From assembly GCA_965178125.1 (NCBI GenBank), contig OZ237756.1, forward strand, positions 1 through 64,000: DNA of 64,000 nt, in the 5' to 3' direction. The notes below the pieces were generated by a model. It made no database searches and had not been told where the DNA came from. It worked only from the letters and a program-made list of their open reading frames with translations. The position numbers and the translations under genes are program-made. Positions 1-63,759 of this stretch are shown piece by piece; position 1 is the first letter of the stretch; the number at the start of each line of letters is the position of its first letter. The DNA comes from Bilabrum cf. latius (taxonomy: Eukaryota).

Positions 1-2544
1 AGTCTGATGCTGGCCTCCGTAGTGCTACCAGCTGAACTGCAGTACGGACAGTTACGGAGTGAACATCGCGCCGACACTATCGAGCATTTGTCAGTGGCTC
101 CATTCTCGCAATGCTTCGTGGAGGTCGTGAAGAAGACATCCATCATGAATCACTTGGAAATGCTCAGGTATACACTCCGTCGGGCACTTTGCAGAATCGA
201 AAGACTGCTCGTAGCAGCTGTCTGTGGTGCAGACAGGATTCCCACGTATCAGCGATCGGCGATGTGGGCGCTAGCTGCATCGATGAGCAGATGCTGTATG
301 GAAGGCTGCGTGGCTCTACGGACAGATGCATGGTCTCAGGTTGTTGCAGAGCAAATTGCCGTAACGTGGCTTCCCGCTACTAGGCCAGTTCTTCGAAACT
401 TAGGGCCTTCGACACTGGAGTGGTCCAGCGTCCGTGACTGTTTGCAATCTGCTAGCAGTATGCCTGAGCAGTCTAATGTAATGGCGGTTGCATCCGCCAT
501 CATTGATCAAATCGGAAATGCGGTGTAGTCAGTCAGGGCTGGGGGGTGCAACGGTACGTTCTTGAACTCGTGGACTGTGCTTGCCGTCTGTGAGGTCATG
601 GTAACGTCTTGGAGCCTGTGTGCGTTGGCAGAAGGCTTGGGCATGACATGGCAGATCTCTCGGATCTCCGAGAGGTATGGTCTTTCTGGACTCGTATCAA
701 CGCAAGGTGACGAGCACTTCCAGTTGGGCATCAGCGGTGTGAACAACGGAATCACCGGCTTTCGTGCTATGGTACGGGCTGACGTGCAGGCTGACATTTT
801 GTCTCGACTGCCTGAGCGGTCCAGGCTATTGTTGCACTTTGCCAAGTCTACAGACATGTCCCACGCTGTAGTCATGGAGCAGCAGCTACGGAAGCTTTAC
901 CTTGCGCAAATGCACCTGGCAAAGCTCCACCTTCGCAGTGGCACACGGAAAGGAATGCTAGCAAGGGGCAGCCTAGCTGTAGCACTGTACGGGCTGCTCC
1001 TATCTCGGCTCAGGTGCTCAAGGAGTGCAATACTAGTTGGCTTGCAGATGTGCATATCCAAGATTGCCTTCAGTCCCAGGCCAGATGCAGGCGCAATGTG
1101 GCGCGGCTCTAAGAACGCTGGGAATCTCAGGGGTGACTTGGCGACCACGACATCTGCTAGGGCCTCCAAGCTAGGCTATGCGTTGATAACATCGTTATCC
1201 TGGACCATGCAACGCAAGCTTGCTGCCGAGTCATCTGTCCGGACCTCGTACGTCGCTTCAATTCTTCGTGCTGTCGTAGGCACCAGGCAGAACGGACAGC
1301 CATCCCTCGCAGACGAGCAGTTTCGTCGTATGGTATCAGTGTGGCTTTTACCTGCGTGTGTGATTGGGTCTGCAGTATTGCTGCCCGATCGGTTGCAGCG
1401 GCCCCCTCTGCCTGGAACGAAGCGACCAAGGGGAGGCCAGCCGTCGATTGCACGATCTGGACTTTAGACAGTGCTCGACGTCTCGCCACCACCAAGAACC
1501 GCCCAGCCTGCCGTTACCATTGCCCAGCACGTGGAGTCTGTCGTGCTAGATCATTTCAAGTGGATGAACCCAGGCTTTGATTGTCCTCAAGTCTTCAGAG
1601 GGGCGCTGAACAGGTAGGATGGGTCACTGCGTCGTGTCATCGATGTAGGCTACTACGGCGCTGGTCTCTGCATTAACCTGCCCTGTAGTCCATCAGTAGT
1701 GCCTGCACTATCAGAAGCCCCGTACTACAAGGCAGCAGGCAAGGGGCTGGTACGCAGGTCACTAGCTCAAAGCTTGAAAGCTGTGGGAGATGTCCGATCC
1801 ATGGTGGCCCGAGCACGTGCAGAAGCAGGAGAAGCAGGCGTGAGTGCCGACCAGAGGCACGAGCTTTGGCGTGCGTATCACATACCTCAATCGCAACACT
1901 GCAGCTAGGTTCTTCGGATGTACACACGTGCTCGTCCTCTTGACGATGGCGACAGCATCCTGTCACAGGCATCCACCACTACTTCTGCTCTTGAGCATAG
2001 CCTAGATTCGTTGGGACATATTTGGCCCGGCCATGAGAGCGATGAGGAAGAAGGGCAATAGAAGCGATCAAGGCACATGCGGCAATCCGGCGAGCATGCG
2101 AGCTCGAGTCCCGCAGAACGAACGGAGGCCAACGCATTCAACCGAACTGCGATCGGCAGCAGGGCATCGGAACCATTGAGGCCTGCCTCGGAATCAGCAT
2201 CCAGTGGGGCTGGCAGCGATGATGATCCAATCGGTCGATTGCTGCAGATGCCTACCGACAAGGCTGGTAGTGACGGCCTTGCCGAGTTGCAGCCGCCGCT
2301 GGGAGCAGCCTCCAGCGCCATCACGCAGCCGCCGACTTCAGCACTGTCACGACCTAGAGGAATTCGTGGTGACCAGAACATGGCGCCATCAGTGCCCGGC
2401 GCTGGATTGCGTGGTATGGGCCAGCGAGATATTTCACGGGCACGTGGCGAAATCGAGATCCTTCTTCTTGGCACCGCTCCACGGTGGGTACACATCCCAG
2501 CAATTGAGCAAGAAGGCTGGGGGTTTGACGAGAAATGGACATGA
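1..2544 (+). CDS. Hypothetical protein, 5'-partial (>847 aa with TAG=Gln)
   Basis: ORF-track pieces 7..528, 562..1467, 1699..1908 and 2077..2544 share one frame. They are separated only by TAGs (5 in total) and end at TGA 2542-2544. No family recognised. Confidence 0.7.
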
Positions 2545-4026
2545 GGCCAGTGAGGTGTCATGTTCTGTGATTTTCTATGCAGAACAGATAACTTGCAGAA
2601 CCTCGAGCTGCATGTGCAGCAGTGAAGAGCTGCATTGCAGCACTGCAGACAGACAAGCCTCTCTCGCCATGAGTTATATCCACTGTAATATAAAGAGGTG
2701 CACTGTTTCAAGACGACATGTGCGTGTGTTGTATTTGGGCTAATGTAGTGCATGCAGGACGTCAGCCCTTCTCATGGAAGTAAATGAACCATGCATCCGA
2801 TTCTGAAGGGTTAGGGCTAACCCTATCATGTGTATTACAAAACAGATTCCTAGCCCACAAACATCCAAGCATCGGTACCGTGAACCGGTGCACACCCTGC
2901 TACAGGCTTGCCCTGCTGGACGTCCTCGGCGCCGCGCATGCTGGTTCCGCTGTTCACGACCGTTTGCGGATTCTGGCGCAACCACACCTCTCAGCGCCAC
3001 ATACCGGCTCAACTGTACTGAGGCCTGTTGGGATTCATGTTAATTACCACTTACTGCCATATGTCGTTGTATGTTCAAGGTGACATGCTGCTGTGGGTCT
3101 GCTTTTGGTCTCGCCTCATTGGGGCGCGCCATGGCGTTTGCAGACAGAACAGCTAGGTACCGCATAGCCCGAGTACAACAACCGCCAGGTATTTTGATTC
3201 TATTGTATTCATTCAAATTGATTGTTGGTGTTTCTGTTAGGTTCTGGCATCTGTATGGGATCATCGCTGGTCTGCTAACGTGCTTGTGCGTTGTCCGGTT
3301 TTCATGGCAGCACTCGGGTATGTTGCCATGCATCGAGGGGCTATTAATTAGTTTCAATCGATATATTCTTTTTCTATGCATTGCAGGCAGCCTTTAGGAC
3401 CCACCTGTGCTGATGAGACCCTCTCGCCGCTTCTGGCAAACATTGCATGGAACTGAGCAGATCTGTGCGGTGGGCGAGCAGAGAGTCAGACCGGCCAACC
3501 GTATAGGGATCCGTACGGATGGCGGTTGATTCTTTGGTCTCCTCAGGGCAGTCCCAACGATGCGTCCCGTCCCCAGCTCCTGGACTCGGCCTTCGGCGGC
3601 ACGCCCGTCATCCTCTCACGCGGCTGCCCGCGCACCCTCCCAGCACTCAGTCCTTGAGTCGGGCGGGAGCGCGGGTGCGTGCTTCGAGGCAGCGCGTGCC
3701 CCCGGGGCGAGAAGGAGCAGGCCAATGACGAGGAGCAGCATCCCGGGACAGGTGTCTCTGTAGATCCGATCGTCGAGTGTGGAGGTGTGTGTGGCAACAC
3801 GATGAACCTGATGTCCCAGATCCGCAATGAGGTGGGGCAGGCAGTGCATGGGAAGCGCAAGCTCCTCGTGCACGCGCTTCATGCCGGCTCGCTGCCATCG
3901 GCCGCTGACTTGATCCCCGGGCTCGCGCACTTGTCGCGGCCCGTGCTGTCTCAGTCACGGACGGGCGAGCTGGATGGAGCACCTGCCCGACGGGGAGACA
4001 ACCCCCTATTCTCGCGGGCGAAACAC

Positions 4027-4390
4027 AGCAGGGCACACCTCCTTGGCAAACCCAATTTGCACGACGCGGTTTGGTCCAGACTCGCCGGGTGGGCGTCCAT
4101 CCCGTGCAGCCCCCTGGGTGCTCGTCACCCACGGGCAGCACCACCGAGGAGACCGAGGCCGAGATTCATTGTAAACCAAGCAGACAAGCATAATCATACA
4201 CCAAATATGCATTGCTAATCACTTGCACCTCTTGTCGACTGCTTGCATATCTGCAACTGGCCCAGATCTGCCTCAGTGCGATCTTGCGACCACTTGGACA
4301 CTGCGCGGCAACACCGTCTTTGCGGAACATGATACTTTTTGCGGAACATGATACTTTCGCGGCGCCCGGGCCTGGCCTAGGATGGTACTG
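4027..4390 (+). mobile_element. Telomere-associated repeated unit, copy 1 (3' part of a possibly longer element extending left towards ~2.8 kb)
   Basis: 364 bp matching 4686-5049 at a constant offset of 659, with 5 substitutions and no indels. Ends ...GGATGGTACTG directly against (TAACCC)n, with no poly(A). Confidence 0.6.
4321..4357. repeat. Short tandem duplication TGCGGAACATGATACTTT x2 near the unit 3' end (also at ~4980-5016)
   Basis: Seen directly in both unit copies. Confidence 0.85.
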
Positions 4391-4685
4391 TAACCCTAAC
4401 CCTAACCCTAACCCTAACCCTAACCCTAACCCTAACCCTAACCCTAACCCTAACCCTAACCCTAACCCTAACCCTAACCCTAACCCTAACCCTAACCCTA
4501 ACCCTAACCCTAACCCTAACCCTAACCCTAACCCTAACCCTAACCCTAACCCTAACCCTAACCCTAACCCTAACCCTAACCCTAACCCTAACCCTAACCC
4601 TAACCCTAACCCTAACCCTAACCCTAACCCTAACCCTAACCCTAACCCTAACCCTAACCTAAACTAACCCTAACCCTACCCTAAA
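4391..4685 (+). repeat. Interstitial telomeric array (TAACCC)44 plus ~5 degenerate units
   Basis: Perfect TAACCC repeats at 4391-4654, then TAACCT AAAC TAACCC TAACCC TACCC TAAA. Confidence 0.98.
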
Positions 4686-5049
4686 AGCAGGGCACACCTC
4701 CTTGGCAAACCCAATTTGCACGACGCGGTTTGGTCCAGACTCGCCGGGTGGGCGTCCATCCCGTGCAGCCCCCTGGGTGCTCGTCACCCACGGGCCGCAC
4801 CACCGAGGAGACCGAGGCCGAGATTCATTGCAAACCAAGCAGACAATCATAATCATACACCAAATATGCATTGCTAATCACTTGCACCTCTTGTCGACTG
4901 CTTGCATCTCTGCAACTGGCCCAGATCTGCCTCAGTGCGATCTTGCGACCACTTGGACACTGCGCGGCAACACCGTCTATGCGGAACATGATACTTTTTG
5001 CGGAACATGATACTTTCGCGGCGCCCGGGCCTGGCCTAGGATGGTACTG
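4686..5049 (+). mobile_element. Telomere-associated repeated unit, copy 2 (5'-truncated, flanked on both sides by telomeric repeats)
   Basis: About 98.6% identical to 4027-4390, with the same 3' junction to the telomeric array. Confidence 0.6.
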
Positions 5050-5577
5050 TAACCCTAACCCTAACCCTAACCCTAACCCTAACCCTAACCCTAACCCTAA
5101 CCCTAACCCTAACCCTAACCCTAACCCTAACCCTAACCCTAACCCTAACCCTAACCCTAACCCTAACCCTAACCCTAACCCTAACCCTAACCCTAACCCT
5201 AACCCTAACCCTAACCCTAACCCTAACCCTAACCCTAACCCTAACCCTAACCCTAACCCTAACCCTAACCCTAACCCTAACCCTAACCCTAACCCTAACC
5301 CTAACCCTAACCCTAACCCTAACCCTAACCCTAACCCTAACCCTAACCCTAACCCTAACCCTAACCCTAACCCTAACCCTAACCCTAACCCTAACCCTAA
5401 CCCTAACCCTAACCCTAACCCTAACCCTAACCCTAACCCTAACCCTAACCCTAACCCTAACCCTAACCCTAACCCTAACCCTAACCCTAACCCTAACCCT
5501 AACCCTAACCCTAACCCTAACCCTAACCCTAACCCTAACCCTAACCCTAACCCTAACCCTAACCCTAACCCTAACCC
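5050..5577 (+). repeat. Interstitial telomeric array (TAACCC)88
   Basis: 528 bp of perfect repeat, reverse complement of TTAGGG. Confidence 0.98.
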
Positions 5578-5582
5578 CTTAA

Positions 5583-5799
5583 CCGCTTGGAGGGTGCGAT
5601 GGATAGCCGTGCTGGCTAGGGCTATGCAGTGGTTGGGAGCCGCTTGGAGGGTGCGATGGATGGCCATGCTGGCTAGGGCTATGCAGTGGTTGGGAGCCGC
5701 TTGGAGGGTGCGATGGATGGCCATGCTGGCTAGGGCTATGCAGTGGTTGGGAGCCGCTTGGAGGGTGCGATGGATGGCCATGCTGGCTAAGGCTATGCA
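5583..5799. repeat. 57-bp minisatellite, ~3.8 copies (subtelomere-like)
   Basis: Unit CCGCTTGGAGGGTGCGATGGAT...GGTTGGGAG starts at 5583, 5640, 5697 and 5754. Confidence 0.95.
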
Positions 5800-5894
5800 T
5801 TATTTTGCAGTGCAAAAGCTCTGAGTATTGAATAACGCATACTTTCACAGGGCACTCAGCAGCCACGGGGCGCGAATGCTACCGTGGTCCAAGT

Positions 5895-7243: not shown

Positions 7244-10200
7244 TTACAGATCTGCACCGCTGCCAGCAAGGGGTGTGTCATCAGTATTTGTTCCCAATGA
7301 CCCAGATGCTGCATTCAGATCAGCCCCCTAGGATACCCTGGCAGTGCCAGGGATCCTGATCCGCTCTACACCTTGTCCCTGTCCCTGACCCTGACCCTAG
7401 CCCTGCCCCCCAGCCCCTGACTACGCCTGATCCTGCTCCAGCAAGGCGGCCCCGTCGTGCGTACTCTCTTCCACTAATTGACTAACTTCGCTAAGGATGG
7501 GTCTCCGGGCCACCGCTGGGGGCGAAGAGGAACCCACCATGGACCCATCAGGCGGAGATGCAGAAGCTGTACTCGCCGACAGAGTCCCACCCTAAGTTCC
7601 GTGCCCAGCTGCCTGCACGCGCAACAGCCGGGCAGAATTGACTCGCGGGATGTGGCGCGGCCCTTGCACGCCCCCCCTCGGTGCCCTTCCACCCACACCG
7701 ACACCGCTCGCCGCCAGCTCAGCCACCCGGCCCACGGAGCTACCGGGCAGTTGTCCGCTAGGAGATCGGCCTGTGCTTCCGTCTACAGCGAGCGCGTTGG
7801 GGGACTACGGGACCGGGCTACTGCTCCTCCCAGCCTCGGCCTCGCTGCCCACAGACGCAGACCTGGCTGGGTCCCTGGCTTCCCCGATCATGCTGACTGT
7901 AGCCCGCCGCATCTCCCTGGTCCGCAGCAACCGGTCCATGGCATGCTTGGGCACACGCACCAGGACGGACCCACGGGAGAACCGAAGCGGCTCGTCCGAC
8001 GGGTGGATCGTGTGGAAAGCAGGCACCCGCAGGCGCCTGCCACCGGCCCGTAGCAGCGCCCCACGCATGAGGATGCACGTGTCCTCCTCCAATAGCACCC
8101 ATCCACGGTGCCCATAGCCTATGCTTCGGCCCATGGAGTCCCCAGCGCCCACAGCCGCAGCCTCCGAACCCCCAACGGAGGCCTTTGAATCCTCGAAGGA
8201 AACCTGCAGCGGGTTTGACACGGATTCTCCGACCGCTTGGCCTGGCCTGTGCCCCGCTGCTCCCTCGCGCCCCCTCGACTGCATCGCTTCTATCTCAGGC
8301 TCGGACAGACCCAGGAACTGCCTAGAGGACCCGGACAGCAGCTCGTTTGCAGAGGGTACGGGCCCATGCATGGCCTCGTCGACATCCTTGCGCTGCAGCA
8401 CAGGCACCTGCACGGTGCTCGGGGGCAGCAGCGTGGAAGCCACCAGCGGGTCGCAGCCCAGCCCGCCCCAGGATCCGTTGTGCTCTTGCTCGCCCGATGC
8501 CGCGCCAGTACCCTCATTGCTGTGGCTGTCTCCCCACGGAACGATTACCGTGGCGAGCCCGAGCGCCTGCTCGATGTCGAGCCGCCTGCTCGTGGCGAAC
8601 GAGTCCAGGAATGCGTGAGCCACATGGGCTGCTGCAGATCTCCACGCAGCTAGCGTGAACACGGTAGACTCGCGCATGAGCGTGCGCACGCCGTTAATGC
8701 TCAGCCTAGCCGCACTCCCGCCCGTGGCGGAGATGGCAGACGTGGTGTGAGCGGTGCCCAGCAGCACCTCGGCCGCTCCCACGATGGAACCGGGACCCAC
8801 GCGACGAGCCGGCACTCTCTCGGCTCCAAGCTGCACCCTGAAGCTGTTCTTTTTGGTGATGCGCCGCCCTCGCCCGGACTGGCCCTGCGCGGCGGCGGCC
8901 ATCGCCTACAGCGCTAAGGGCGATGCCCGGCCCCCACCCTCACTGGACGATGCCGCCTTGATGTCCCTCGTGTCGAAACCCTTGGGGGCCGAGCCTGCCG
9001 TGCCCGCCGCGAATACCGCCACTGACCCCTCCAGCACGATGATGATCCCATCCGGATCATCCCCTTGCTTGAACAGGAACTGCTCGTTAGATAGCACAGC
9101 ATACTGCGACTGCCGGATCACGCCCGACAGAGACTCGGGGGGCAGGGCCCTCCCAGCCAGCGCTGACGTGCGCAAAATGTCGGCGAGCGATTTCTGAGGC
9201 ACAGCGGAGGGGTTCCCTGACGCCTTCTTGCAGCTGCTATTGTTGTGCTTGAGGATGAGCTCCAGCTGCTTCTCATCGATGCCGCCCTCGTGGTGCAGTT
9301 TCATGGCCAGGTGGCGCTCCTTGAACAGCAGCGCCAGGGCGGCCTGCTGCGTCTGAATTGACCGCACAACAGCAGGATACCCAGACCGCAGCCGCTCTGC
9401 CCAGTCTTCTGCGCTCTGCTACTACGTCTCGGATTCGGCCGCTATGCGATTCCCAGTGGACTCATCGATCGACCAGCTCTTCCGGGCTCGCCGCACCGCC
9501 GCCTGGCCGTGAGAGAACCCCACCGCTACATCGTATGCTGTCGCGACATACCCGCTGATGAAACCGTCCGTCACGCAGTGCAGCCACTCGAACCTCCGCA
9601 GCAGCAACAGCCACGAGGGCAGCTCCACGAGGCTCTCAAGCGCGTCCCACTAGTGCATTGCCTCAGTGTCCGCGTGGTCCAGCTCCTCCGACTCTGCCAG
9701 CAGCAGCAGCCGCAGAGCGTCCCTGCCCAGCAAGCCGGCCTCGTGTCGGTGCCAGTATGCCGCCTTGGAAGCCGCGATGAACCGACGCCTCGTCTCGGCC
9801 GCCACCACCTCGGACCCCTGCGCCACGGGTGCACTCGAGGCGATGCTAGCCGCTTCGCGTGCGTCCACGCGCACAACCTCGCTGGACGAGGACTGCAGAG
9901 CAGCGTCCACCGCGCTGTCGAGGGCACGTGATTCACCCTCTACTAGCGTGGCTCGCCGGGCCGACAGCGCGCCGGCAGCATCGTCGTCCGCCTCCACTTC
10001 TTCCTTCTCGCCGTACAGGCACTGCCACCACCAGCTCTCCCGCCGCTGCTTGTCGGCGACTTGCTTGGCAGTCGCCGGGTCATACCGAGCTAGGTACCGG
10101 CCCCAGCGAGCTGACACCCGCTGGGGTGCCTGCGAGGCATCCGTGCCTGGTACCCGCCCCTTGCTGATCCTGTCAAAGTACGAGCTGCGCGAGTACACGG

Positions 10201-11795
10201 GGATGTAGCTCCAGACCGCGTTCCAGTCCGCCATGGCGAACTCGTCCCTACCGGTGAGCTCCGTGGCGCTGTCGCCCGTCGCCGAGTTGATCAGGTCACT
10301 GGCGTGCTCAAACATGCGGCGCTGCACTGGCGACTCTTTGCCGAGCCCCAGCTGCCCCAGCAGCAGCTTGGTGGTGGACCCATTGATGAGCAGCGTGAGG
10401 AATGCGATGCCCGCCACATAGAAGAGCACCCTCTCGCGGAGGGTCACCTCGATGTTCTCGTCCTGCTCCACGATCAGGCCAAGGCTGAGTCCAACTGCCC
10501 CGCGCAGACCTGCGTACGACAGCACGATGGCGCTCCGCCAGTCCAGCGGGTATCCCGACCACGCTAGCACCGGATAGCAAACGAGCACGCAAGCAATGCG
10601 CACCGCGTGCAACGCAATGTACAGCACGATGAGGTAAAGGAACTCGGTACCTCCTACGTACGAGGAGAAGAGCGCCTTCTCCGCGATGATGAGGCCCGAC
10701 AGGAGGAAGATCACCGTGTTGGCCAGGTACCCCAGCATCTCCCAGAACGAGTGCATCGTGTGCTCCACCTCGGGACTGACCCGCGTCTTGGCGTACCCGG
10801 ACATCAGCACGCCCAGCGTCACCACCGCCAGCACGCCGGAGGTTTCAAGCGCCGTCCCCTCTGCCACTGCAAAAGCCGTGTAGCACCCCACGACTGTCAT
10901 GGTCACTTCAGAGATGGCGTCGTTGTACACGTAGCCGAGCAGCAAAGTGATGGCGATCGCGCACACGGCGCCCCAGATTGGACCAACCGCGGCCAGCTGA
11001 ATGCCCATCCCCACCATGGCCCCCGGACTGGACTCGATGGTCTCCGTCAGGATGCCCCTTACAAGGGAGAAGAGCACGATTGCACTGCCATCGTTCAGCA
11101 AGCTCTCGCCCTCGATTAGCGTCTCCAGCGGCTTTGAGGCGCCTAGCTCTTTGAGCAAAGCAACAACTGCCACTGGGTCTGTGGCAGCCAGAATAGAGCC
11201 TAGCATAAGGTGCGCTGTGAACGTCCAGTCGTACTGCTGGAAGAGCGAGTTCGTCACTGCGGCAGTCAGCAGCGTGCCCAGCACCATCCCCGGCACTGCA
11301 AGCGCAAGGATCTGCCAGAAGGACTTTCTGAACACGTGAAAGTCTACGGAAAAAGCACTTTCAAAGATGAGGGTGGGGAGGAACACGAATAGAATGACAT
11401 GTGGGTCTACATTGGCCCATCCCTCCAGGATTCCTCGCAGCTGCACGCCCTCCTCCGGCAAAAACTGGTCCAAAGTTCCAAGCAAAACTCCAAGGACCAA
11501 TAGAAGTACCTGCGCTAGCCTATAATCGCGCTAGGATACTTAGTGGTGCAAGCGCCGATGGGAGAGGTGCGGCACGCGCCGCGCGCGCATGGCATTTGTG
11601 TGCGGCCACGGACCGTGAATGGTACCGGCAACAACTTACCGTGTATGGTGCCGGAAAGGGAAGAAACTGAGGGAGAATGTTCCTGCAGAGCAAACCCAAT
11701 AGCAGCGTGATACACACGAAAATCGCCGCATCTGCAACTGCCTCATGACCTGGTTCCTCCGGGCCAACGGGCTCTGGGGGACTCTCTCCTATCAT
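7244..11795 (-). CDS. CPA1 Na+/H+ antiporter, SOS1/NHX7-like, with a C-terminal cyclic-nucleotide-binding-like domain (~1470 aa; intron 11639-11510)
   Basis: Motifs FLPTLIFESAF, ATDPVAVVALLKELG, IEGESLLNDG, AGLRGAVGLSL and FLFKQGDDPDGIIIVLEGSV. Nine in-frame TAGs; stop TAA 7244-7246. Confidence 0.9.
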
Positions 11796-45960: not shown

Positions 45961-46160
45961 AGCACGAAATGTATTGAAGAAGCAGCTGCTCGAAGCTGCA
46001 AGCTATAAATTGTGCGTACTTGCAGTTCCTCCCTGTCCCCATTCGCAGAGCAGTGCCCTGCAAAAGCGACGTGTGCAAAAGCAACAAACCGTATGGGCGA
46101 TGTACTAAGCAACCATTGAAGAATTTGCAATGAAGGAATGAAAATCAAAAGAGTGTTAGC

Positions 46161-46655: not shown

Positions 46656-46815
46656 GGCTTGTCGTGGAGCTTGGAGTGCCTCCCGAGCACGAGAGGAAGC
46701 GTGGGGTGGGGGCTTGTCTGATGCACAGCCACACGACCATCCGCAAATGGACACAAAAAAGAAGATTTGTAATCGTGCGTAGCATGTATCAGGCTAGGCT
46801 GCGCATCCGGCTGCT

Positions 46816-47601: not shown

Positions 47602-47732
47602 CGCGACTGAACTTGTACGAACAAGAGATTATCAAGTGTGTTCCTCGCGAGACTGTCTCGATCGAAAGCGAAGCTTTGAGGAACCTTCACCAGCAAGATT
47701 GCATTTTTTCAGATCCGCCGATCAAGACGATT

Positions 47733-50700: not shown

Positions 50701-52382
50701 TGCGTGGACCGACAGCGATGCAGCATAAAGGAGCCAAGGGGAGGAGCTCGAGTGCTTCTATGGGCCTGGGTATTCCTGCCATGCTTCGGAGGGCAAGCAG
50801 CGGGAGGGAGGATGCGGACGGAGGTGCTGAGGCTGGTGCTGGGGCTGGTGCTGGGGCTGGTGCTGGGGCATCCGCGAGTACAATCAGGTCAAGTGGTGGG
50901 CCAATGGAGGGCGGTGGGGGCTGCAGCTGGCTCACTGTGCCGTCCATCAGTCTAAGCGCGGCCCACGAGAAGGCCAGCAGTTCGAGCTCACCAGCAGGAG
51001 GTGATCAAACAGTTCATTAGCCTGGCCATGACTTCGAACCCGCTGGTCGAGATGCCCCCGATGTCGTGCAGTTTACCATCGAGCAGGTGCGATCCGCTGC
51101 CATGGAGTTAGGCCCTGCGCTAGGGGTGCTGGCCGGTGGGGCACACGCAGGGGACGAGTCTTCTGACGATGAGGTGATGAGGCTGCTGGGGGCATGTCGC
51201 CTGCCGGATGGGAAGGTAGGCCTGCTTCACGGTCCAGGAAACAATAGGAGAGTGCTATCCTGGAGTGACGGAGCGGGGGCTGTCCTGGATCTGGACCATG
51301 CCGGCGGAGCAGATGGCCATGGACGCTGGCTGGGAGCCGGCTGGGTGGACGAGGTGCAGCAGGCCCGCAGCGTGCTTGCTGGTGCAGGGGTGGGCGCGGG
51401 CAAGGGCACGCGGGGCGGAGGTGCTGTGCTGACCGCACTAATGGATGCATCTCGGCTGCTGGCCCTCCGCTTCCAGCGAGTGGGGCAATCCGCTGCTCCT
51501 GTCGGTGATCCTGCCGGTGCTGCGCCTGGAGGGTAGCGGGCCGAGGCCGACAGCCCCGAGGCGATCGCAGCAGCGTGCAAGCGCACGGCCCTGTAGGGCG
51601 CCAGTCCCGCTGCAGTGATTGCCGTGCGGCGCGCAATTCACGACGCTGACGAGCCCGCGGGTGCAGCGAGGAGCGTGATCGATGCACTGCGGTCAGGCGG
51701 CCTCGGGGCCGAGCTGCCGGTTCCACTGGGAGGAGGCAGCGAGGATGTGAGTAGGGGAGGCGGGGTGAGCGTGCAGCAAGCGCTCAAAGACGCGGAGAGA
51801 GATGTGACTTGTGTATCTGGGGCTGTGTTCAAGGGGGCTGGGTGCGGCGTACCGCTGCTGAGGGCGGTGGAGGACGCGCTGACAGGGGCCTTAACAGCAC
51901 GCGGAGGAGGATAGGGCGAGTGGGCGGGCTCAGCTGATGCCGCGCGTAGCATCGTATGCGCCGCGAGCCGCACTTCTATGGGCGCAGACGCCTTCTTTGC
52001 CGCAAGAGCGCTGCTGGGAGGCGGAGTGCACCTGACACCCAGGACTTCCAGCGACAATGACGGTGCATCAGGGGATGGTATGCCAACAGCTCCTGTGGAT
52101 ATCCGCGTGGAGTGGTCCACTGCCGCGAGAGAAGAGTTAGGCCCAGGTGCTGTGCGAGTTTCCATGCAGGCGGACACCGGATTCGACGTGTTCACACGCA
52201 AGCAGATGCAAGTCGCCATGGAGGGCGAAGAGGGGCTGGAGCAGCTCCAGCCTCGGTTGAGAATGCGCGTATGGGTACGGGAGGAAAGGGACTTGCAAGT
52301 GCTGGGCAGGGGTGGGGGCGAGGGCGAGGGGTCGGTACCCTCCCGCAGAGTTCGAACCCTTCGTTTTTAGATCGCGGAGTGA
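47733..52382 (+). CDS. Large protein with N-terminal WD40-like repeats (~1520 aa; probable intron 47784-47867)
   Basis: WD-like segments VACLAVDPTGSLVASCCSDGRVAIH and VHACCWAPDGSALYTVG. Six same-frame ORFs joined by TAGs (8 in total); TGA 52380-52382. Confidence 0.7.
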
Positions 52383-52461: not shown

Positions 52462-54010
52462 TCAACTTCCGGACAACCACATCTGCAACCCAGCTTGCTC
52501 CACGTCTGGCCCCACCCCGTGTCCAAGCTAGCTGCCATCCCCTTGCCCATGCACTAGCTCGATGCTGTCTGCCAGCACCGCCCCACGCACTCTGCTGACC
52601 AGCTCGCGGACGACTCCCTTGGCATCTCCTTGGCCGAGGCCAGCATGGTCCCATACCTTTGTGACGTCTGTTGGCTTCGCCTAAATACTCGCAGATAAGC
52701 TTGCCGACAAATGCCGCCCCCCACCACTCTCGAGCCCTGCAGCCACAGCGCTCCCCGCCCACTGGCTCGGCATAGCGATGGCATCGATCGGCATCAGCAG
52801 GCGAGATGTGCTAGAGATGCAGGCCGCATCCCATTTGTCCAAGTCCCCTGCCAGCGGTGCCTCCCTTCTTACAGACAGGCCCATCGCCTCGGCCTCCTGC
52901 ACCGCAACTCGCAGCACGGTCCCCTCCAGCACGCCTTCCTTCGCCGTCCACAGAACGCCACCCTAGAGCACCAAGAAATTCGTCTGCGTCCCTTCCAGCA
53001 CACGCACCCCGGAACTCTCTCCCTTCTGGCCCTCCTTTTCCCCACTGCCACTGGCCCCGGCACTGGCACTGGCTCCACCCGAAGCCAGCAGAACCTCCTC
53101 GACGGTGCTGGGCTTGGCCTCCTCCAGCCCGGCCCTCTGCCGCACCCACTCGCTGTCTTTGGCCTCTGCGTTGGACCGGGGGGCACCGCGCACGTGTGCC
53201 ACCACATCGCGCGCCCTGGCAGATGGCAGTGGTCCAATATGGGTGTATAGTTTCAGCGGCGCACCCTGCAGCGAGGGCACATCAGGAGGCAGCTAGCGTC
53301 TCCCGCTTCCATCCCAGGCCAGCAGCAACGTGATCTTAGCTTCTCCGCGATTTAAGTCGGCACCTATGTTATGTGAACCCTCTGTCTCTGCTGTGATGCC
53401 TTGCTACGGTCGCTACTCGGAGCGGTGCAGTGCTTGATACGCCAATAGCCCGCGGCGAATGTCTCGAGCTATGTACGGCCGCAATAGCGCCGCATCCGTA
53501 ATCGTGCGAAGCACATCGGGAGATACCATAGCGCTGTTGTCTTTATTGATCATGAGTTTCGAAGACTTGGCTGCGATGTGCAGAGCGGACAATACGCCTA
53601 GTAGTTGCAGTTCATGACTTGCTGCACCTGCTTTTTTGGGTACGCACCACACTACGTTGGCCTCACCAAGTCTCTCAACGTGCGTGTCGAATCCAAAGAC
53701 CTTTGTGGAATCCACCGTCCTGGCGGTTGTATATGAGCCTGCACGTGCAATCTGGTTGCGCTTCTTGGCAGATTTCAAGCAACTAGTACAACTGCAAGTG
53801 TAGATATGCAACAGCTGCAGGCGACTAGCGGCTTATCTTACCACGGGGTCCCATACGCAAGAGATCTTTAGCAGACATGTTCGTTTGACAAGCTCTCCCG
53901 TTTGCAACGAGTATCTACTGGGCCGCAGGCGTACACTTCAACGCATAGGTGGTCGAAAACGAGGCCAATCCAATCGAATAAAGAGCCCCAGGGACAACTA
54001 AACGATGCAT
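52462..54010 (-). CDS. Class IV aminotransferase-like protein (D-amino acid aminotransferase/ADC lyase fold); at least 2 introns near the 5' end, start uncertain
   Basis: Motifs PR/GSYTTARTV..VFGFDTHVERL, RSNAEAKDSEWVRQR, LEGTQTNF, VLEGTV and ISSTSRLLMPI. At least 5 TAGs; TGA 52462. Confidence 0.75.
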
Positions 54011-54579
54011 GGCAGAGATATGGGCCCTATACGCAGACTTATGTCCGAAACGAAACATGAAGATCTGGAACTATCACAAAATCTGACCCATACTGTTATT
54101 GACGTGGATTCCACGGGCATGACGAGTGCAATGTAGCGTGTACCTAATTGTACCGAACCGACATTGGTTGCGATTGCCACGCCCATTTCTCGAATATAGG
54201 CCGCCGAATCACGGTAGTTAGCACGTCAAAGCTTATAATCTATTGACTAAGCTGCGATTGGACTCTTTTGATAACATACATTCAGCGTTTGCTTTGGCCT
54301 TCGAGGTAGGTCAAGCAAAGCAGCGCCGACTCGGTTGATTAGTGCATCGGACACACAGGAGAAAGCAGTGGGGGCACAGAGCTATCGACTCAAGTTCTAC
54401 CGTTCAGCTGTTGTACATCCAGCACCATGTCTTAGTTTCGACCCGGGCCGAGCGGACCAGTTGGCGGGCCGACCCCAAGCATTGGCATGACTTCAGCGTC
54501 GCCAATTCACCAAATGATCAGCGCGTACGGGTCAGCCGGTGACGGGGCCCCGTCATTGGCTCGATAGTTTATATTGTAG

Positions 54580-57500
54580 CACTAGCGAAAATCTGAGCGT
54601 GACCTCTAGAAGCGCCGCGAGATGGCCAAGCAGCGCCGCGAGATGCCCATCTGGAAGCGCGACCAGTAGCGCGAGGCCAAGAAGCGGCAGGCGCTGAAGC
54701 GCATGCAAGCGGAAAGAGCTGCCGAAGAAATCAAAAAGTGCACCTTCAGGCCGCAGCTGTCGGGGCACTCGCTGCGGCTTGCTGCCAAATCCCGGAGCCG
54801 CACTGGCCCGGGGGGCCGGCAGGACCAGGACCCTGCTGCGGCCCTCGATGACAGCGTCACCAGCCTGGACTAGGTGACCACGAGCGTGGGGGGATTTACG
54901 AGCCACGCGGGCGGGAGCGGCAGGCGTGGAGCCTCCCGCGTGCCGTCCGCTGCCCTGACTGCCACTGCCTCGAGCGCCAGCAAGCGCAAGGCGAGCATCC
55001 CGGGGCAGCAGTACCAACCCCCACCGCTGGGGGAGCAGGGGACGGTCGGGCAGGGGTCGCCCTTGGCCCCTGGACCCCGGGGCGGAGGCGGGGGTTCCAT
55101 CCCTGGGGCGTATGCGAATCAGCACAAGACAGGCGGGGGCCCGGTCGGGCAGAGGCGGGGCTGCTGCAGTGGCCGGAAGGGGCCTCGCGAGGGGGCGGGG
55201 AGGGGGAGGGGCAGGGGTCGGTCCGGAGGATCCACCCCCACCGCGGGGTCATCACGAAGTGGGTCCCCTTCGCAGGGGCGATCGGGGCATCCGGTGCACG
55301 GCATTGCAGTTGGATCTCCCACAGACAGCGGCCTGGTGCAGCTGAAGCGGCCGCCGTCTGTTGGTGGGGGGAGGCGACGCAATGGGAAGGATGGCCCCGC
55401 GATGGTGGGGGGAGCTGGCACCCCCGGCTTCGAGATGAACTGGCTGCAGATGAATGACCCAGAGGTGGCCAAGGCCATGCAGGTGCGTCGCTCCCTGCAG
55501 CAGGGCAAGCACCAGCAGCCGAACGTTCCCCAGGGCACACAAGGCAGCCGCACCATCGCCGCACCGTCGCCTCGCGGGGAGCAGCCTCCTCCTCCCCAGG
55601 GGCCGCCGCCCCCCGGGGCTCGACGGATAGCAACCGATGGAGGGAATGAGCAGCCGCAGCCGCAGACACATGGGCAGCCGCAGACACAGGAGCAGCCACC
55701 AGCCTAGGCAGCCGCTGCCCCAGCGCCAGAACCAGCGCCAGCTCCGGCACCAGCTGCCACCGAACAGCCCGCAACTCAGCCAATCCCCGGTGCGGCCAGC
55801 AGCTCACCGGAGCTCCCAGCAGAGCCCACTGCAGCGTCCAAGTAGGCGCATCTTCCTGTCCAGCCAGCGGGACAGCCGGCCCCGGTGCGGCCCCCTTCGA
55901 CTAGCCACTCCCCGCCCGAGTCCCCGACCCCCCCGGGAGCGCAGCCTAGCGGCAGGAGGAGGAGGAGGAGCAGTGGCAGCAGCGGGGGCGGCAGCCGCGC
56001 GAGCTCACCCCGAGCTAACTCCTCCTCTCCTCTGTCTGCGAGCAAGGGCAGGGACAGGGTGAGGGACAGAGTCAGGGAGCGGGACCGGGCCCAGCGGCTG
56101 AGCCAGCGGGCCGCTGAGCTGGAGGCGGAGGTGCTGGCGCGGCAGGCGAGCCACGAGCAGGACAAGAAGCAGGCCGTGAGTGATGCTCGGCGGGCCAAAC
56201 AGTAGGCAGAGGCCAAGGCGCAGGCCTTCGAGCGGTCCATCCAGCAGCAGGTGGAGCAGGGCAGGAGGGAGGCCAAGGCGCAGGTGCAGGACATGAGGCA
56301 GCGCATGGCCGAGCAGGTGGCCGAGGGCAAGGCCGACCGGGCCGTGACCCAGGAGCAGCTCAGGGGCACCGAGCGGCAGCTGGCCCAGGAGCTCGAGGCG
56401 AAGAGGAAGCAGCTGCAGGAGGAGGCGGCGGGCATGAGGGCAGAGGCCGATGAGGCCCTGGCATCGGCCCACCGCGCCATCAGGGAGAAGGAGGCGCGGT
56501 GGCAGCTGGAGCGGCAGGAGATGATGCTGCGGGCCGAGATGGAGGAGGCCGGCGCCAGGCAGGCGGCCGAGGTGCAGGACGAGAGGACGCGCCTGGAGAA
56601 GGAGCTGCGGGAGGGGGGTAAGGAGGAGGGTGAGTTGCAGCGGGTCGTGCAGGCGGCGCTGGAGGGGCTGCAGGCCAAGCACAGGGAGGAGGCAGGTGCG
56701 CTCAAGCAGGAGCATGAAGCGGCGGTGCGGGCGCTGAAGGAGGCACAGCGAGGGGCAGGAGCTGGATCGGGCGGGGCGGGAGCGGGGGTGCCGGACGGGG
56801 CGGGGGGCAGGGCGGTCGCGGCGGCAGCTCTGCAGTCTGCGGCCGCTCGCGCAGTCGGCGTGTTCCGCTAGGAGAGGATGCGGGCCAGGGAACAAGAGCT
56901 GGCAGCGCAGGCAAGCGCCGCGGAGGATGAGGTGAAGGCAGAGCAGGCGCGGCACGAAGAGGAGAGGTCGGCGCTGGAGGCCCGGCTGCAGGAGCAGGTC
57001 AAGGAGGGGCGCATGCATGCGGAGGCCATGCAGGAGAAGCTCCAGGAGCTGGCGCGAGAGCAGGCCTAGCAGCTGGCGGACGCGAGGCGGCTGGGCGAGG
57101 AGAGACTGGCGCTGATGCGCGAGGAGCTGCAGAGGGAGCGGGAGGAGGCTGCCGCCAAGGAGGGCCAGCTGAACGAGGCCCTGGAGGAGGCGGCCAAGGG
57201 TCACCAGCGGGCGGCGGTGGCGAGCCGGTGGCACCGCGCCATGACCAAGAGCAACACTGCCACGCTGAGGGACCGGCTGCGGGCGGCGGAGCAGGCCCTT
57301 GCGGCGAGTCAGGAGGCGCAGGGGTCTCTGCAGCGGGCCCTTGAGGAGGAGAGGCAGCGGGTGGTGGAGGCCACGGGGGCGGCTGCAAGGGACCTGGAGC
57401 GGGAGCAGGCGGCGGCACGGGACCGCCTCGAGACGGCGGAGCGGAGGCACGCGGACGCGCTTGCGAGGCAGGCTGCAGAGCACCGTGCCGAGCTGTCGAG

Positions 57501-58650
57501 GGCAGCTGAGGAGGCGGAGCGGCGGCAGCTGGGGCAGTACAAGGAGCTTGTAGACAAGCACCTGACTCTGCAGGAGCAGCTGACGGAATCCAGGGTGGGC
57601 AAGGAGATGGCCGAGCAGGCGCTGGGGCGGGCGAGGGACCGAGTGGGCGAGCTGGAGGCCCGGCTGGGGGAGGAGAGCAAGGAGGTGCAGGAGCTGAGGA
57701 ACAGGGGGGACGTGAGCGCGGAGGAGTACGCGCGGGTGCTGGATGACTTCGCGGGGCAGATCCAGGGCCTGCGGGAGAGCCTGGCCAAGGCGGTTTCGGA
57801 GCGGGGCGACCTCTACAGGCGGTTCGTGGATGAGCGGGCGGCTCGGCTCGCGGCGGAGCGGCAGCGGGACGGGTTGCTGGAGGAGAGGAGGGGCTGGAAG
57901 GCCCGCATGTCGGGGCAGGCGCGGCAGCTGTCTCGGCTGCTGGACGACCTCAGAGGCAACAAGGACCGGTTGGTGCAGTCGATGAACGACGTGTTGGCGG
58001 AGCGTCAGGAGGTGCAGGGTGAGAGAGAGGCGCTGGCTCGCAGGGAGGCTGCACTGGTGGGCTTCCTGCAGAGGTACCCAGAGGCATCTGCGGATGTTCT
58101 GGATGCGTACGGGGCGGCTGGGGTGGGCGGTTTCTCGGGAGGTGGCTCTCCTACCGTGGGCATGGGCTTGGACATGGGAGTGGCATCGCTGGAGGAGCAG
58201 CAGGCGAGGCAGGCCGCGTTCGAGTTGGAAGGTCAGCACGAACATGGCTACCCGCAGCAATACCAGCAGCATCAGGGCGACGATGGGGAGCAGGATCAGC
58301 AGCACGGCCGGGGGTGGACGCAGCAGCACGCGGCAACTACCGCAGAGGGTGGTACGTTGTCGGCCCGTGAAGAGAAAACTGCCGAAGCGAGCGAATAGGC
58401 GGACATGCGTGCATCTGCTAGCGACAAGGCAAGTCCTGGTGCTGCCTTTGCAGCTCTCCGGGCAGTCGCTTCAACGGACTTGCCGGAGCCTGCTGGGCGT
58501 GGTCACAATGGCGCGCACGGCTGGATGCAATCCGGTGCGAGGGCAGCACTGGAGGCCGGATCAGCAGTTGATGTATCAGCGATCGCTGCCCGGCAGCGTG
58601 CTGAGCTAACCGCAGAAAGGAACGAGGCGCATGCCAAGGCAGGCACCTGA
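54580..58650 (+). CDS. Large coiled-coil protein (main exon; additional 5' exons probably from ~54041)
   Basis: One frame from the acceptor at 54579 to TGA 58650 with 10 TAGs. CTFRP motif, a G/P-rich linker, then a long E/Q/R/A heptad region. Confidence 0.75.
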
Positions 58651-59832: not shown

Positions 59833-62800
59833 TCACTCGTCCTCTAGTTCGTCTTCAGTCCCATCATCTAGATCATCGTCGCCATCATCCAGATCGTTGA
59901 AGTCATCTGCCACCAGCGGATCGACTTGGCCTTCCCCCGTCGATTCCATTTCGGCAAGGTCTGCGCCCCTCGCACGGCCGTGGCCACCCACACCCACCCT
60001 GATTCCTAGCTCCTGCTCGACCCCGTACTCCTCCACTTCCCCCCAGGGCTTGTTGTCCTTCTAACCAGCACCATCCGGTGCACCACTCGCCGCCGTCGAG
60101 TCCTGTCCCCGGCCCGCCTCTGCCTCGCTGGCAGCCGCCTCAGCCTCTGCCTCTGCCCGGGGCCATAGCCCCGCCCCCCTCAGGACGCCCTCGCCTTCCC
60201 CAGACAGCACCAGCCCCAAGATCCCGTCACTGGGGGGCCCAACGGACCCCACCTCGGGGAGCAGCGGACGCACAGCCGCCCGCACATCCGCTGGTCCAGG
60301 GGCGACGGGGAACTCCCTCTCCGGTGCCGGCCGGTAGCACGCACAGCAGGCCCCCAGCCATCGGGCGCTCACCACGCGCGTACTTGCAGAGCGCACCGCA
60401 GAGAGTGCCTTGCTCGTGCCGGGGCGACCCACTGCCACGTGAGTCATGAGGTGGAACGGATTGGGGGCATGCACATGACCTGAAGCAGCAGGGACTGCAG
60501 GAGCAGACCCAGCTACCCCCACCTCGCTACTGCCCTAGCCCTTGCTCTTGTCTTTCCTCTCGGCTTCAGCGTGATCTTGCCCCTATCCTTGCTATGGGCT
60601 CTACCCTCCTTGGAGGTTGACCAATACCGGAACCCCGTCCTGCTGCTGTACTGTGAATCCCTTGGGCAGCGAAGGCACAGGCAGGGTGTAGGGACATGGG
60701 GTGCCCGGCAGCTGACTCATCCCTGCACCGGTCGATGCTGCTGCTGCATCTGCATCTGCAGCTGCAGGTGCCGGCACAGTGCCTGTGAGCATGGGGGGGG
60801 CTGGTGCTCGCAGGACCCTTGCCCCCATGGTGGAGAGGTGCTTGGCCAGGGGGTCGTGCAAGGGATCCACGCCCAGAGGGAATACGCCGGTGGTTGCAAC
60901 CACCACGCCTCGCATGGCGACTCGGAGTCGCAGGGGCAGCAGCAGCTTGGTGTCCCGCCACACGTCTGGCACTGCTCGCGGCATCGCGGCTGCGGTTGCT
61001 GCTGGCTCTGGCGCATCGGCCGGCGGGGAGTCGTCGTGGCCTGACACTGATCCAGCCGTGGATGCGATCGAGGAGGAGGAGGATGATGACGACGACGAGG
61101 CACCCCCTTCACTACGACGAGTGCTGCTGGTGCCGTCGCCGTGCAGTGCAACAGATGATGCGGGCAGCGTCCGTACAACATGCCTGTGCCCCTGCCCCTG
61201 CCCTTGCCCCTGCTTATCCAGCCCTGGTTCCACCCACACGTGCTGATGCCAGGCAAGAAACGAGACCCACTCGGGAGCCCGAAGCACCGTGGGGCACAGC
61301 TCAGCCGACACGTCCAGGCTAGATCCACCAGCCCAGGCCGCCGGCTGTTTTCCTCCTGGTGCCTCCGTCCAGCGCCATGGGGTGGACCCTGCCTTGGATC
61401 GAGCGAGAGCGAGCACAGCCTCTCTAGTGACTGGCCCTGCGGCGCCGTGCGACCCGCCTGCCCCACTGGAAGAGGCGGCTGCCTGTCGGAACTGCTTGGT
61501 CTGGAGGTCCTGTGGCCCATCGATACTAGTCGGTGCAGATGGGGGCGATGCAGGTGCAGGCACCGGCGCAGGCGCGGGTCTCGCTCTCTTGCGGCGGATG
61601 AGAGAGGACCCCGTGCCCTTGGCGCCACCCGGGGATTGGGAACCGATGCTGCTCCCGCTTGGGCTTGATACACTGGTACTGGCACTGGTGCTGCTGGTGC
61701 TGGCTTTAGCTGCGACATCTGAATCGCTCGACAGTGTACTGGGTCTGCTGGCATCGTGCGTTTCCTACTGACTCGCTGTAGCACTTAGCATGGATTCCGT
61801 TGGAGGCCCGTCGCTCGCCATGCTGGACTCTGCGCGCTAGTCCACCCGTCTTCTCTTGGAAGCGGGCGCTTCCTGATCCACCGCACTGAGTGGGCCTGTC
61901 GATTGCCCTTGTCCTTCCTGATCCACCGCACTGAGTGGGCCTGTCGATTGCCCTTGTCCTTGCCCTGCCCCAGCTGCCTCAACCACGTTGCCCCCAATGC
62001 ACGTGTCAAGAAAGCCGCGGCTCGGCAGCCCGCCCCTCCACTCCCAGCATACCTCCCCCCGCTACTGAAGGGCGCCGACTTCGCGCGGACTGCCATGCCA
62101 GGCCTCGTCATCCCCCACGGGCAAAGGCAGGGACCCGGGTGCAAACCGCATGGCCCGTGCTACACCCAGCGATGCACCTGCACTGGCACCCGCACCCATG
62201 CTCTGCTCAGCAGGCAGCAGCACCTCCTGCCCCGGCTTAGACAGTCCGTAGTAGGCAGCGTGCACGTCCTCCAACACGTCGAGAGCATCTGCTAGAGCCA
62301 GCCTGGGCTCCTCTTGCACGTCCACGCTGCCCGCTCCCGCTCCCGCTCCCGGTCCTCTGGGGGCACCTCCCGCGGCGAAGGCCTGCTGCCCGGGGGCGTT
62401 GTTCACGTCCCTGAACCCCCGGAAGAACACGTACCTGGCGATGACTAGGAGGTTCCGCGCCCCTCCCCACACCGCCTCCGTGTCGTCGAGGATGACCGTC
62501 ATGGAATCGTCCTGGCGGTGCGAGTGCAGCCAGGCCTGGCTCTTGCTGCTGCCGTCCCCGCCCTCGTTGTCCGACCGAGATATGATGCGGTGCCCGAACA
62601 GCTTCCTCTCTGGGTCGAGCAGCCGCGCGATCGCGTCCGCGTAATCCCTCGTGCCCGCCGTGTTGATGCCCAGCTCGAAGCGGCGGGAGGCGCGCCGCAG
62701 GAAGGCCCGCACGCCCGGCCGCAGCTTCACGAAGTACGTGCCCCCACCGAACTGAACTATGTGCACGGGGCACCGAGGCACGCCCAGCGCCCTCGGGTCT

Positions 62801-63759
62801 GCAGTGGCGTGCAGCAGCGTGTGGTCGATGTCCAGCACGAGCCTGAGCTTGCGGCGGGCCCTCAGCCGCTGGCTCGCCGCCTCATCGGAGGCCCGCGCCA
62901 CGCGAGAGGAAAGAACAAGTTCATGGCCTCCTCTGGCCCGCAGCTTGAGCGTGCCTGCGGCCCCGCGCTGGCCCGCTCCACTTGCCCCAGCGGTTGCTGA
63001 TGCTTCTCGCGTACGTGCCGGTGCTCCTCCAGCCGCTTCCAGGGCCCGCTGCAGCGCATCAGCCGTTTCCAGCCGATCCCAGGGGTCTTTGCCAACTTCA
63101 TTCAAAGGACAACTGCGATGATGCCACCGGGATTCGTGCAGGCGCCAAATCGGGCCCCAATCGCGTGATTTGCTGGCAGCCGTTGACAGCGACCGCAGCT
63201 CGGGTTCGCTCGCATTTCTCCGAGTTGCCAAGTCCCAGGTCGTTAGCTCCTAAAGCTGAACCGCGGAATCTCTTACTAAATGAAATGTTCCCGGTGATGG
63301 TAGCTCGGAATCTACTTTACGGAGAGCCGCCATGTTCTAGCCGCACGATACGCATGCTCCCTTGAACTCACCGGGGTGAGAACACTCGGCTACCACAGCT
63401 AACCGTATGAATGCACCCATATTTTCATGCACTCCGGGCCTGTTTGATACTATGGGCACCCATGCCGGGCACTTCAATGGGACGCATGCTTTGGACTCGG
63501 GCACGAGCCAGGCAAGCAGCATGCCATCGACCGGGCTTCGAACCACAACCTTGTGTACTTCGCTATCAGGGGCGCTAGATGATGCCGCAGCCGCACTTGG
63601 GGAGGCTAGTGGCTACATCCACTTGATCTTGGCAAGGATATCGCCCCGCTTGACGACATCTTGCTGCTGTTTGATGGCCTTTACGTGGACGACTGGATCA
63701 GTGCTGCCGTGAGACACCTGCCGAAATCCGGCGCACACAACAGACACTATGTCATCCAT
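59833..63759 (-). CDS. FCP1: RNA polymerase II CTD phosphatase FCP1/CTDP1-like (~1308 aa)
   Basis: Motifs CSHPGEFKGACVSCG[TAG], LRLVLDIDHTLLH (DxDxT), VKLRPGV, LFGHRIISR and ILDDTEAVW. BRCT-like MRGVVVATTGVFP...THVAVGRPGTSK..VVSARWL. Eleven TAGs; TGA stop. Confidence 0.9.
61871..61960. repeat. Exact 45-bp tandem duplication within the FCP1 linker
   Basis: TCCTGATCCACCGCACTGAGTGGGCCTGTCGATTGCCCTTGTCCT x2, frame-preserving. Confidence 0.92.

Follow-up and report, generated by a model that had tools for sequence, protein, structure and literature searches.

Where the nuclear genetic code departs from the standard one, UAG and UAA are nearly always reassigned as a pair. In excerpts of one published account (PMC11687900), codes that read both codons (UAR) as glutamine (Gln) are listed for many ciliates, hexamitid diplomonads, Ulvophyceae, Streblomastix and Amoeboaphelidium, and UAG alone is read as Gln in four lineages, namely two phyllopharyngean ciliate lineages, Protocruzia tuzeti and Iotanema spirale; the same excerpts give UAG as leucine in a rhizarian and some ciliates, and as serine in Scotinosphaera. 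Here we report on a stretch of 64,000 nucleotides (nt), positions 1 to 64,000 of contig OZ237756.1 in assembly GCA_965178125.1, deposited as Bilabrum cf. latius (Eukaryota), the whole of which we call the window. The DNA is nuclear and comes from an intron-poor, GC-rich eukaryote, where UAG very probably serves as a regular sense codon for Gln, while UAA and UGA stay terminators. An earlier reading of the same letters, the original prediction, had proposed this code, and the proposal is borne out by homolog columns, close relatives, an ortholog on an independent metagenome contig (L001) and spliced contigs.

The fornicate Iotanema spirale resembles the window organism in that UAG alone has become Gln, with UAA and UGA as stops, in a protist that is not a ciliate, and the mechanism predicted for it in excerpts of its description, a tRNA-Gln with anticodon CUA together with an altered eRF1 (which carries T32G in the GTS motif), is like the one we propose below (PMC5304391). 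It differs in its supergroup, being a metamonad and so unrelated to the apparent stramenopile studied here, and in being known from a transcriptome (PMC5304391). The phyllopharyngean ciliates and Protocruzia tuzeti likewise read UAG alone as Gln, and the excerpted account presents them as repeated independent origins in which UAG was uncoupled from UAA (PMC11687900). They are, however, ciliates, a group prone to code change, whereas the window organism is a non-ciliate by its MTR4 phylogeny, GC-rich, and dominated by TGA as terminator. The UAR codes share with the window a change from stop to Gln, presumably via mutation of a tRNA-Gln anticodon, but in them UAA and UAG change jointly, whereas here UAA ends three of 21 genes and never stands in frame. 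The code itself is already known, NCBI translation table 15 (TAG=Q, the rest standard) being formally identical to it. That table, listed for Blepharisma nuclei and some phages, is a bookkeeping entry, and the phage cases concern bacterial-type translation with suppressor tRNAs rather than eukaryotic nuclear genes. The nearest named relative in our MTR4 tree, Cafeteria roenbergensis/burkhardae (Bicosoecida), is unlike the window in that its MTR4 is predicted uninterrupted, at 1,213-1,215 amino acids (aa), under the standard code, with no sign of UAG=Gln. Full-text searches on stramenopiles, Bigyra, bicosoecids and Cafeteria turned up no case of a reassigned nuclear UAG; most subscription journals, and the supplements, lay outside them, so that an earlier report is possible; the stramenopile items on genetic codes met there, by way of reference lists, concerned only the mitochondrial codes of Labyrinthulea.

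The window has a GC content of 56-67%, and eukaryotic nuclear genes lie close together in it. We defined 21 open reading frame (ORF) models as frames free of TAA and TGA, which together comprise 16,656 codons counted from the presumed starts. In-frame TAG occurs 100 times, spread over 20 of the 21 models; 59 of these TAGs lie in 13 family-supported models and 41 in seven ORFs without a Pfam match. TGA terminates 18 models and TAA three. The original prediction had counted about 100 TAGs in 22 of 26 models, with 22 TGA and four TAA ends; the number of TAGs and the restriction of gene ends to TGA and TAA hold on recounting, whereas the tally of models becomes 20 of 21. It had also noted the lack of in-frame TAA and TGA, and indeed the 21 models contain none, a zero that is partly a matter of how the models were built. 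A control comes from the +1 and +2 frames of the same DNA, which hold 34 and 46 TAA and 272 and 274 TGA, respectively (about 0.019 per codon), giving a chance of about e^-22 for a frame of 1,164 codons without either. Because the shifted frames are so rich in both codons, frames of more than 1,000 codons free of TAA and TGA are not due to chance. Under the standard code the longest stop-to-stop frame measures 900 aa and none reaches 1000 aa; once TAG alone is read as sense, the number of ORFs of at least 1000 aa rises from 0 to 8, with a maximum of 1,529 aa. Gln in the models would then be written as CAG 552 times, CAA 125 times and TAG 100 times, a TAG share of 12.9%, at a GC content of third codon positions (GC3) of 0.72. 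TAG also stands next to CAG inside GQGQ repeats; in a Na+/H+ exchanger several TAGs do so within a GQGQGQ repeat.

Pfam recognises 13 TAG-spanning frames; the identities of GET3 and of a protein with an isochorismatase domain came from homolog and PDB searches. The genes on which the argument draws are as follows.

42466-45960, minus strand: MTR4/DOB1 exosome helicase (Pfam DSHCT, DEAD and MTR4 barrel), with six in-frame TAGs whose first bases are 45501, 45384, 44136, 43752, 43344 and 42897 (minus strand), ending in TGA.
40871-42310, plus strand: GET3/ASNA1 ATPase (homolog search), with TAGs at 41168 and 41879, ending in TGA.
39774-40618, plus strand: isochorismatase-domain (ISOC/MAR1-like) gene of two exons around an intron at 39968-40065, with TAGs at 40079, 40478 and 40556, ending in TGA.
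32770-35274, plus strand: carnitine/choline acyltransferase (CAT; Pfam Carn_acyltransf, E=7e-116), with one TAG at 33136, ending in TGA.
20351-22075, minus strand: quinone-oxidoreductase/PIG3-like ADH (Pfam ADH_N), with one TAG at 21821-21823, ending in TAA.
28286-32026, minus strand: DBP7-like DEAD-box helicase (Pfam DEAD, Helicase_C, CTE_SPB4), with five in-frame TAGs, ending in TGA.
59833-63759, minus strand: FCP1-like CTD phosphatase (Pfam NIF and PDB Fcp1), with eleven in-frame TAGs, ending in TGA.
7244-11539, minus strand: Na+/H+ exchanger with cNMP-binding domain (Pfam Na_H_Exchanger, E=1.5e-51), with nine TAGs past the first Met, ending in TAA.
35446-37956, minus strand: PUF/CPL-domain gene (Pfam CPL, PUF_NOP9), with TAGs at 37851 and 37713 and a 5' intron at 37932-38029.
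52462-53832, minus strand: class IV aminotransferase-like gene (Pfam Aminotran_4), with six in-frame TAGs.
47793-52382, plus strand: long WD40-containing ORF (weak Pfam WD40 match), with seven TAGs past the first Met, ending in TGA.

The two exons of the ISOC gene, when joined, leave the frame open for 248 codons from the ATG at 39774, with the three TAGs inside. All nine TAG positions quoted in the original prediction lie in frame (MTR4 45499-45501, 45382-45384 and 42895-42897; GET3 41168; DBP7 30989-30991; ADH 21821-21823; CAT 33136; ISOC 40478; FCP1 63337-63339); its rendering of the DBP7 motif as AETGAGKT was wrong, the sequence being AETGSGKT.

The amino acid at these sites was read from homologs. 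We translated TAG as X and aligned MTR4 and GET3 with 120 homologs each. The alignment of MTR4 with human MTR4 (PDB) gives E=3e-295 and is collinear across the TAGs. Two MTR4 sites, 154 (the Q of the helicase Q-motif region 'LDPFxRR') and 193, carry Q in 120 of 120 homologs, and site 1022 carries Q in 75 of 120; in GET3, site 100 is Q in 113 of the 115 homologs aligned there. MTR4 site 737 falls in an insertion and GET3 site 337 in a lineage-specific one. When profile log-odds were summed over the TAG columns with at least 60 aligned residues, six of the eight in the two proteins, Q scored +14.2 nats, with E next at -11.0 and all other residues at or below that value. Columns with a Q majority make up four of six at TAG, 12 of 38 at CAG and one of six at CAA, against seven of 1343 at non-Gln codons. 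Solved structures add three genes. The CAT site pairs with the Q of 'AHQDALPRLPVP' in the four carnitine acetyltransferase (1t7n) constructs that reach it, of five shown; the ADH site is Q in three of four solved homologs and N in one; and ISOC 40478 faces Q, Q, N and S in PDB alignments, that is, Q in two of four. Six of the nine examples that the original prediction had offered as Gln are therefore supported (three in MTR4 and those in GET3, CAT and the PIG3-like ADH), ISOC 40478 falls in between, and two, DBP7 and the CVSCG site of FCP1, are not, for reasons given below.

Close relatives in public data extend this picture. Protein collections hold fragments 77-95% identical to the window proteins, their incompleteness being the result of gene calling under the standard code. 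Together with L001 they provide nine residue observations for five of the window's TAG sites, Q seven times and K and A once each: GET3-100 is Q in P0146 and P0163; GET3-337 is Q in P0145 (95% identical), K in P0146 and Ala in L001; MTR4-609 is Q in P0266; MTR4-1022 is Q in P0267 and P0269; and FCP1-129 is Q in P0397, a 90% identical fragment that stops exactly before the window TAG of FCP1-221. P0266 and P0267 come from the same contig, where a single MTR4 has been split into the two. L001, a contig of 1,907 nt and the one returned by a GET3 scan of Joint Genome Institute (JGI) metagenome contigs, encodes an ortholog of the window GET3 with 53.5% GC and 352 of 473 aligned residues identical (74%), and its frame is open only with three TAGs read through, none of which coincides with a window TAG. 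TAG325 of L001 stands opposite CAG314 of the window, where 115 of 119 homologs have Q, TAG415 stands opposite CAG404 and TAG468 opposite GAG; conversely, TAG100 of the window faces CAG in L001. TAG and CAG thus interchange like synonymous codons. The public protein P0163 is the L001 GET3 cut at TAG325. Since the L001 ortholog carries its own set of in-frame TAGs, the trait is shared by a clade. The assignment of TAG sites to Gln is carried alike by the log-odds, the invariant MTR4 columns, the relatives and the L001 swaps. As a side observation, 4120 nt is listed as the longest contig both for P0163 (a GET3 fragment) and for P0269 (an MTR4 C-terminal fragment), which suggests that GET3 and MTR4 are adjacent in a relative, as they are in the window.

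Four public runs from three studies were compared with positions 28001-48000 of the window: X1, and X5, X6 and X7 from two studies. The contigs of X5, X6 and X7 skip 32296-32378, 37932-38029 and 39968-40065, each of which is bounded by GT and AG on the strand of its gene, whereas X1, a DNA run, keeps all three and has no such joints. Since the precise loss of three introns is hard to explain otherwise, we read the X5-X7 contigs as spliced transcripts. Their listed pieces cover 12 in-frame TAGs with no differing letter: 33136 in CAT; 37851 and 37713 in the PUF gene; 40079, 40478 and 40556 in ISOC; 41879 in GET3; and 45501, 45384, 43752, 43344 and 42897 in MTR4. The CAT TAG is covered by contigs of X6 and X7, and the PUF TAGs by spliced contigs of X5 and X6. 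A single difference was seen in the 20 kb, G to A at 36519 in X7. The retention of UAG in RNA, which the original prediction had named as a check, is thus seen at these 12 sites, and the CAG that it had named as a refuting observation does not appear in the four runs, all of which match the window at each covered TAG. Because the TAGs are unchanged in contigs that lack the introns, base-calling error and U-to-C editing are excluded at the 12 sites. Three short GT..AG introns (83, 98 and 98 nt) were seen in these 20 kb, two of them at the extreme 5' end of genes, and the genome is intron-poor.

Window-identical DNA also occurs in runs that bear the names of other organisms and, at low proportions, in algae and protist metagenomes, and a related MTR4 cluster, that of P0007, includes a protein recorded as belonging to a Symbiodinium assembly. 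Organisms of this group may often live alongside, or contaminate, cultured algae.

Several observations weigh against reading UAG as Gln, or lend it no help. Distant homologs give no Gln signal at MTR4 site 609 (R 49 and Q 39 of 120) or at the variable site 873 (A 40, S 28 and Q 5 of 120); ISOC 40079 pairs with R, K and K, and the variable ISOC 40556 with E, I, A and R; the sole aminotransferase TAG inside the domain pairs with K in distant transaminases, again at a variable position; and FCP1 site 221, the CVSCG site, has K7, Q4 and E3 among 20 aligned homologs (PDB Fcp1 structures stop short of the N-terminal region that carries the TAGs). The DBP7 TAG before motif I pairs with Ala in DDX18/HAS1 and is uninformative on the amino acid. 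Such variable sites neither contradict Gln nor add support for it. The 41 TAGs in the seven Pfam-less ORFs lie in frames whose coding status follows from length alone, and the definition of the models partly builds in the lack of TAG terminators as well. None of the runs is recorded as RNA, and X5 is predicted to be 'probably DNA', so that the transcript origin of the contigs rests on their missing introns only. The 64-kb window yielded no tRNA gene (ARAGORN, 0) and no Rfam match, and the case for Gln at UAG is made from DNA, homologs and transcript-like contigs.

These points have to be set against the other ways in which the TAGs could be read, two of which concern the stops. Within this one 64-kb window, the status of UGA as terminator follows from the 18 of 21 models that end in it and from MTR4, where TGA comes directly after the conserved C-terminus (...FAASLYV, with ...FAASLYL in human MTR4); that of UAA follows from the neutrality of TAA-as-sense for the ORFs, from the three TAA ends and from L001, whose GET3 has TAA at the C-terminus where the window GET3 has TGA. 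It is very unlikely that UAG has a context-dependent double use, as Gln inside genes and as terminator at some transcript ends, in the way known from Condylostoma or karyorelict ciliates. The way in which the models were built keeps any TAG terminator from showing, and the final TAG of the WD40 ORF comes just four codons ahead of its TGA, so that termination there is possible; but C-termini fixed by homology stop at TGA or TAA (MTR4 at TGA, the GET3 end ...DIDVD common to the window, P0145 and P0146, and L001 at TAA), the last TAG lies 20 to 901 codons before the stop in the 18 other TAG-holding models, and the base that follows a sense TAG is only mildly skewed (A22, C35, G36, T19). Nothing in the window requires termination at UAG. 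It is highly improbable that the organism has an ordinary UAR=Gln code and that 64 kb of GC-rich DNA is too little to reveal a rare sense TAA. With GC3 at 0.72 and 125 CAA against 552 CAG, a sense TAA would be uncommon, yet the CAA:CAG ratio applied to the 100 TAGs still predicts about 23 TAAs in frame. Moreover, reading TAA alone as sense leaves the ten longest ORFs essentially the same (the best 900 aa both ways, the ninth and tenth going from 489 and 485 to 492 and 490 aa) and merges no gene, three genes end in TAA, with 24 (Na+/H+ exchanger), 2 (ADH) and 8 further codons to TGA, and the L001 end speaks against it too. The C-terminal 200 residues of ADH had no PDB match, so that its TAA end is without a homology anchor.

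The remaining readings accept the stops and question either the residue or the TAGs themselves. That UAG is sense but stands for another residue (Glu, Lys, Leu, Tyr or pyrrolysine), or is decoded ambiguously, could draw on some TAG columns where K, R, A or E prevails among distant homologs; it is barely credible in view of the log-odds, the two invariant Q columns of MTR4, the swaps of TAG and CAG between orthologs and the position of TAGs beside CAG in GQGQ repeats. We give next to no weight to an artefact or to decay, be it base-calling or assembly error at CAG, U-to-C editing of mRNA, or pseudogenes hit by C-to-T changes. TAG is indeed one C-to-T change from CAG, but the four runs from three studies agree at every covered TAG and the intron-less contigs keep all 12; random decay, or decay resembling repeat-induced point mutation (RIP), would also give TAA and TGA, whereas only TAG is found in frame; and relatives in other data sets carry in-frame TAGs of their own. 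Three further candidates were rejected: recoding of the pyrrolysine or selenocysteine type, for which TAG occurs too often and stands in Gln columns; TAGs hidden in introns, since the transcripts are unspliced there and the homolog alignments run straight through; and an organellar or phage origin, the genes being nuclear eukaryotic with spliceosomal introns present.

If UAG is an ordinary Gln codon, as we hold, it would be decoded by a tRNA-Gln with anticodon CUA, one base from CUG, that pairs with UAG and not with UAA, and eRF1 would have lost its affinity for UAG. Excerpts of the Iotanema study state that only anticodon CUA reads UAG without UAA, that tRNA-Gln(CUA) is one mutation from tRNA-Gln(CUG), and that a UAG-only reassignment requires eRF1 to cease recognising UAG (PMC5304391). 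The 64-kb window does not encode eRF1. Because TGA ends 18 of the 21 genes in a GC-rich genome, UAG was possibly already a rare terminator, and TGA-dominated termination may in this way have made its capture easier (codon capture).

The organism was placed by a FastTree phylogeny of MTR4, that is, of one gene, with 121 sequences, 981 columns and few named taxa. The window groups with P0018 and Cafeteria roenbergensis at a Shimodaira-Hasegawa (SH)-like support of 0.98; this group is nested in a clade of environmental sequences, to which the labyrinthulomycete Mucochytrium quahogii is sister (0.984), and the oomycetes come next outward (0.997). With moderate confidence we take the organism to be a bigyran stramenopile, probably near the bicosoecids, and it is probably a relative of the flagellate Cafeteria; the original prediction had ventured, as a weak guess, a heterotrophic stramenopile, with which this single-gene tree, placing the window next to Cafeteria, agrees. 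An independent origin of UAG=Gln in this lineage is plausible. [quoted passage not shown]

A further origin outside the ciliates would offer one more independent case from which to learn how UAG is uncoupled from UAA by eRF1 and tRNA-Gln, and a GC-rich genome that terminates mostly in UGA allows codon capture to be tested against ambiguous-intermediate models. With several diverged members in public data, the reassignment could be dated and the changes in tRNA and eRF1 traced. Standard-code pipelines split genes of the group (P0163 at an L001 TAG, P0266/P0267 and P0397), and databases therefore hold truncated proteins for it. The case is of high interest for the evolution of the code, and the truncated public gene calls for the clade give it practical weight.

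The other features of the window that were recorded are these.

12140-13414, plus strand: ERGIC/ERV vesicle-transporter gene (Pfam COPIIcoated_ERV, ERGIC_N), with three in-frame TAGs.
22358-23476, minus strand: S-adenosylmethionine (SAM)-dependent methyltransferase (Pfam Methyltransf_25), with three in-frame TAGs.
54247-58650, plus strand: long coiled-coil ORF without Pfam match, with thirteen TAGs past the first Met, its coding status taken from ORF length only.
32296-32378, plus strand: GT..AG intron of 83 nt, missing from the X5, X6 and X7 contigs and kept in X1.

Another coiled-coil ORF, at 23535-27518 on the minus strand, contains two long in-frame tandem arrays, at 25264-26287 (84 nt x12.2, 97% identity) and 26459-26963 (42 nt x12, 90%), which translate into near-perfect protein repeats of 28 and 14 aa. 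The ORF at 38423-39550 (plus strand, 375 aa) has nine TAGs, about 2.4% of its codons and about four times the average. It lacks a Pfam match and has Ser/Gly/Ala runs of low complexity; either the protein is rich in Gln and evolves fast, or the frame is non-coding. The TTAGGG telomere of the original prediction is real as a repeat but lies in the interior of the window, as (TAACCC)n arrays in one orientation at 4391-4684 (about 49.5 copies) and 5050-5577 (88 copies). Each array is preceded by a shared unit of about 130 nt that includes a doubled 19-mer (4319-4357, 4980-5016), and a 57-nt repeat (x3.8, 5583-5799) follows the second. By its appearance, the region 4260-5800 is an interstitial telomere tract, a subtelomeric unit that was duplicated, or a place where the assembly joined chromosome ends.

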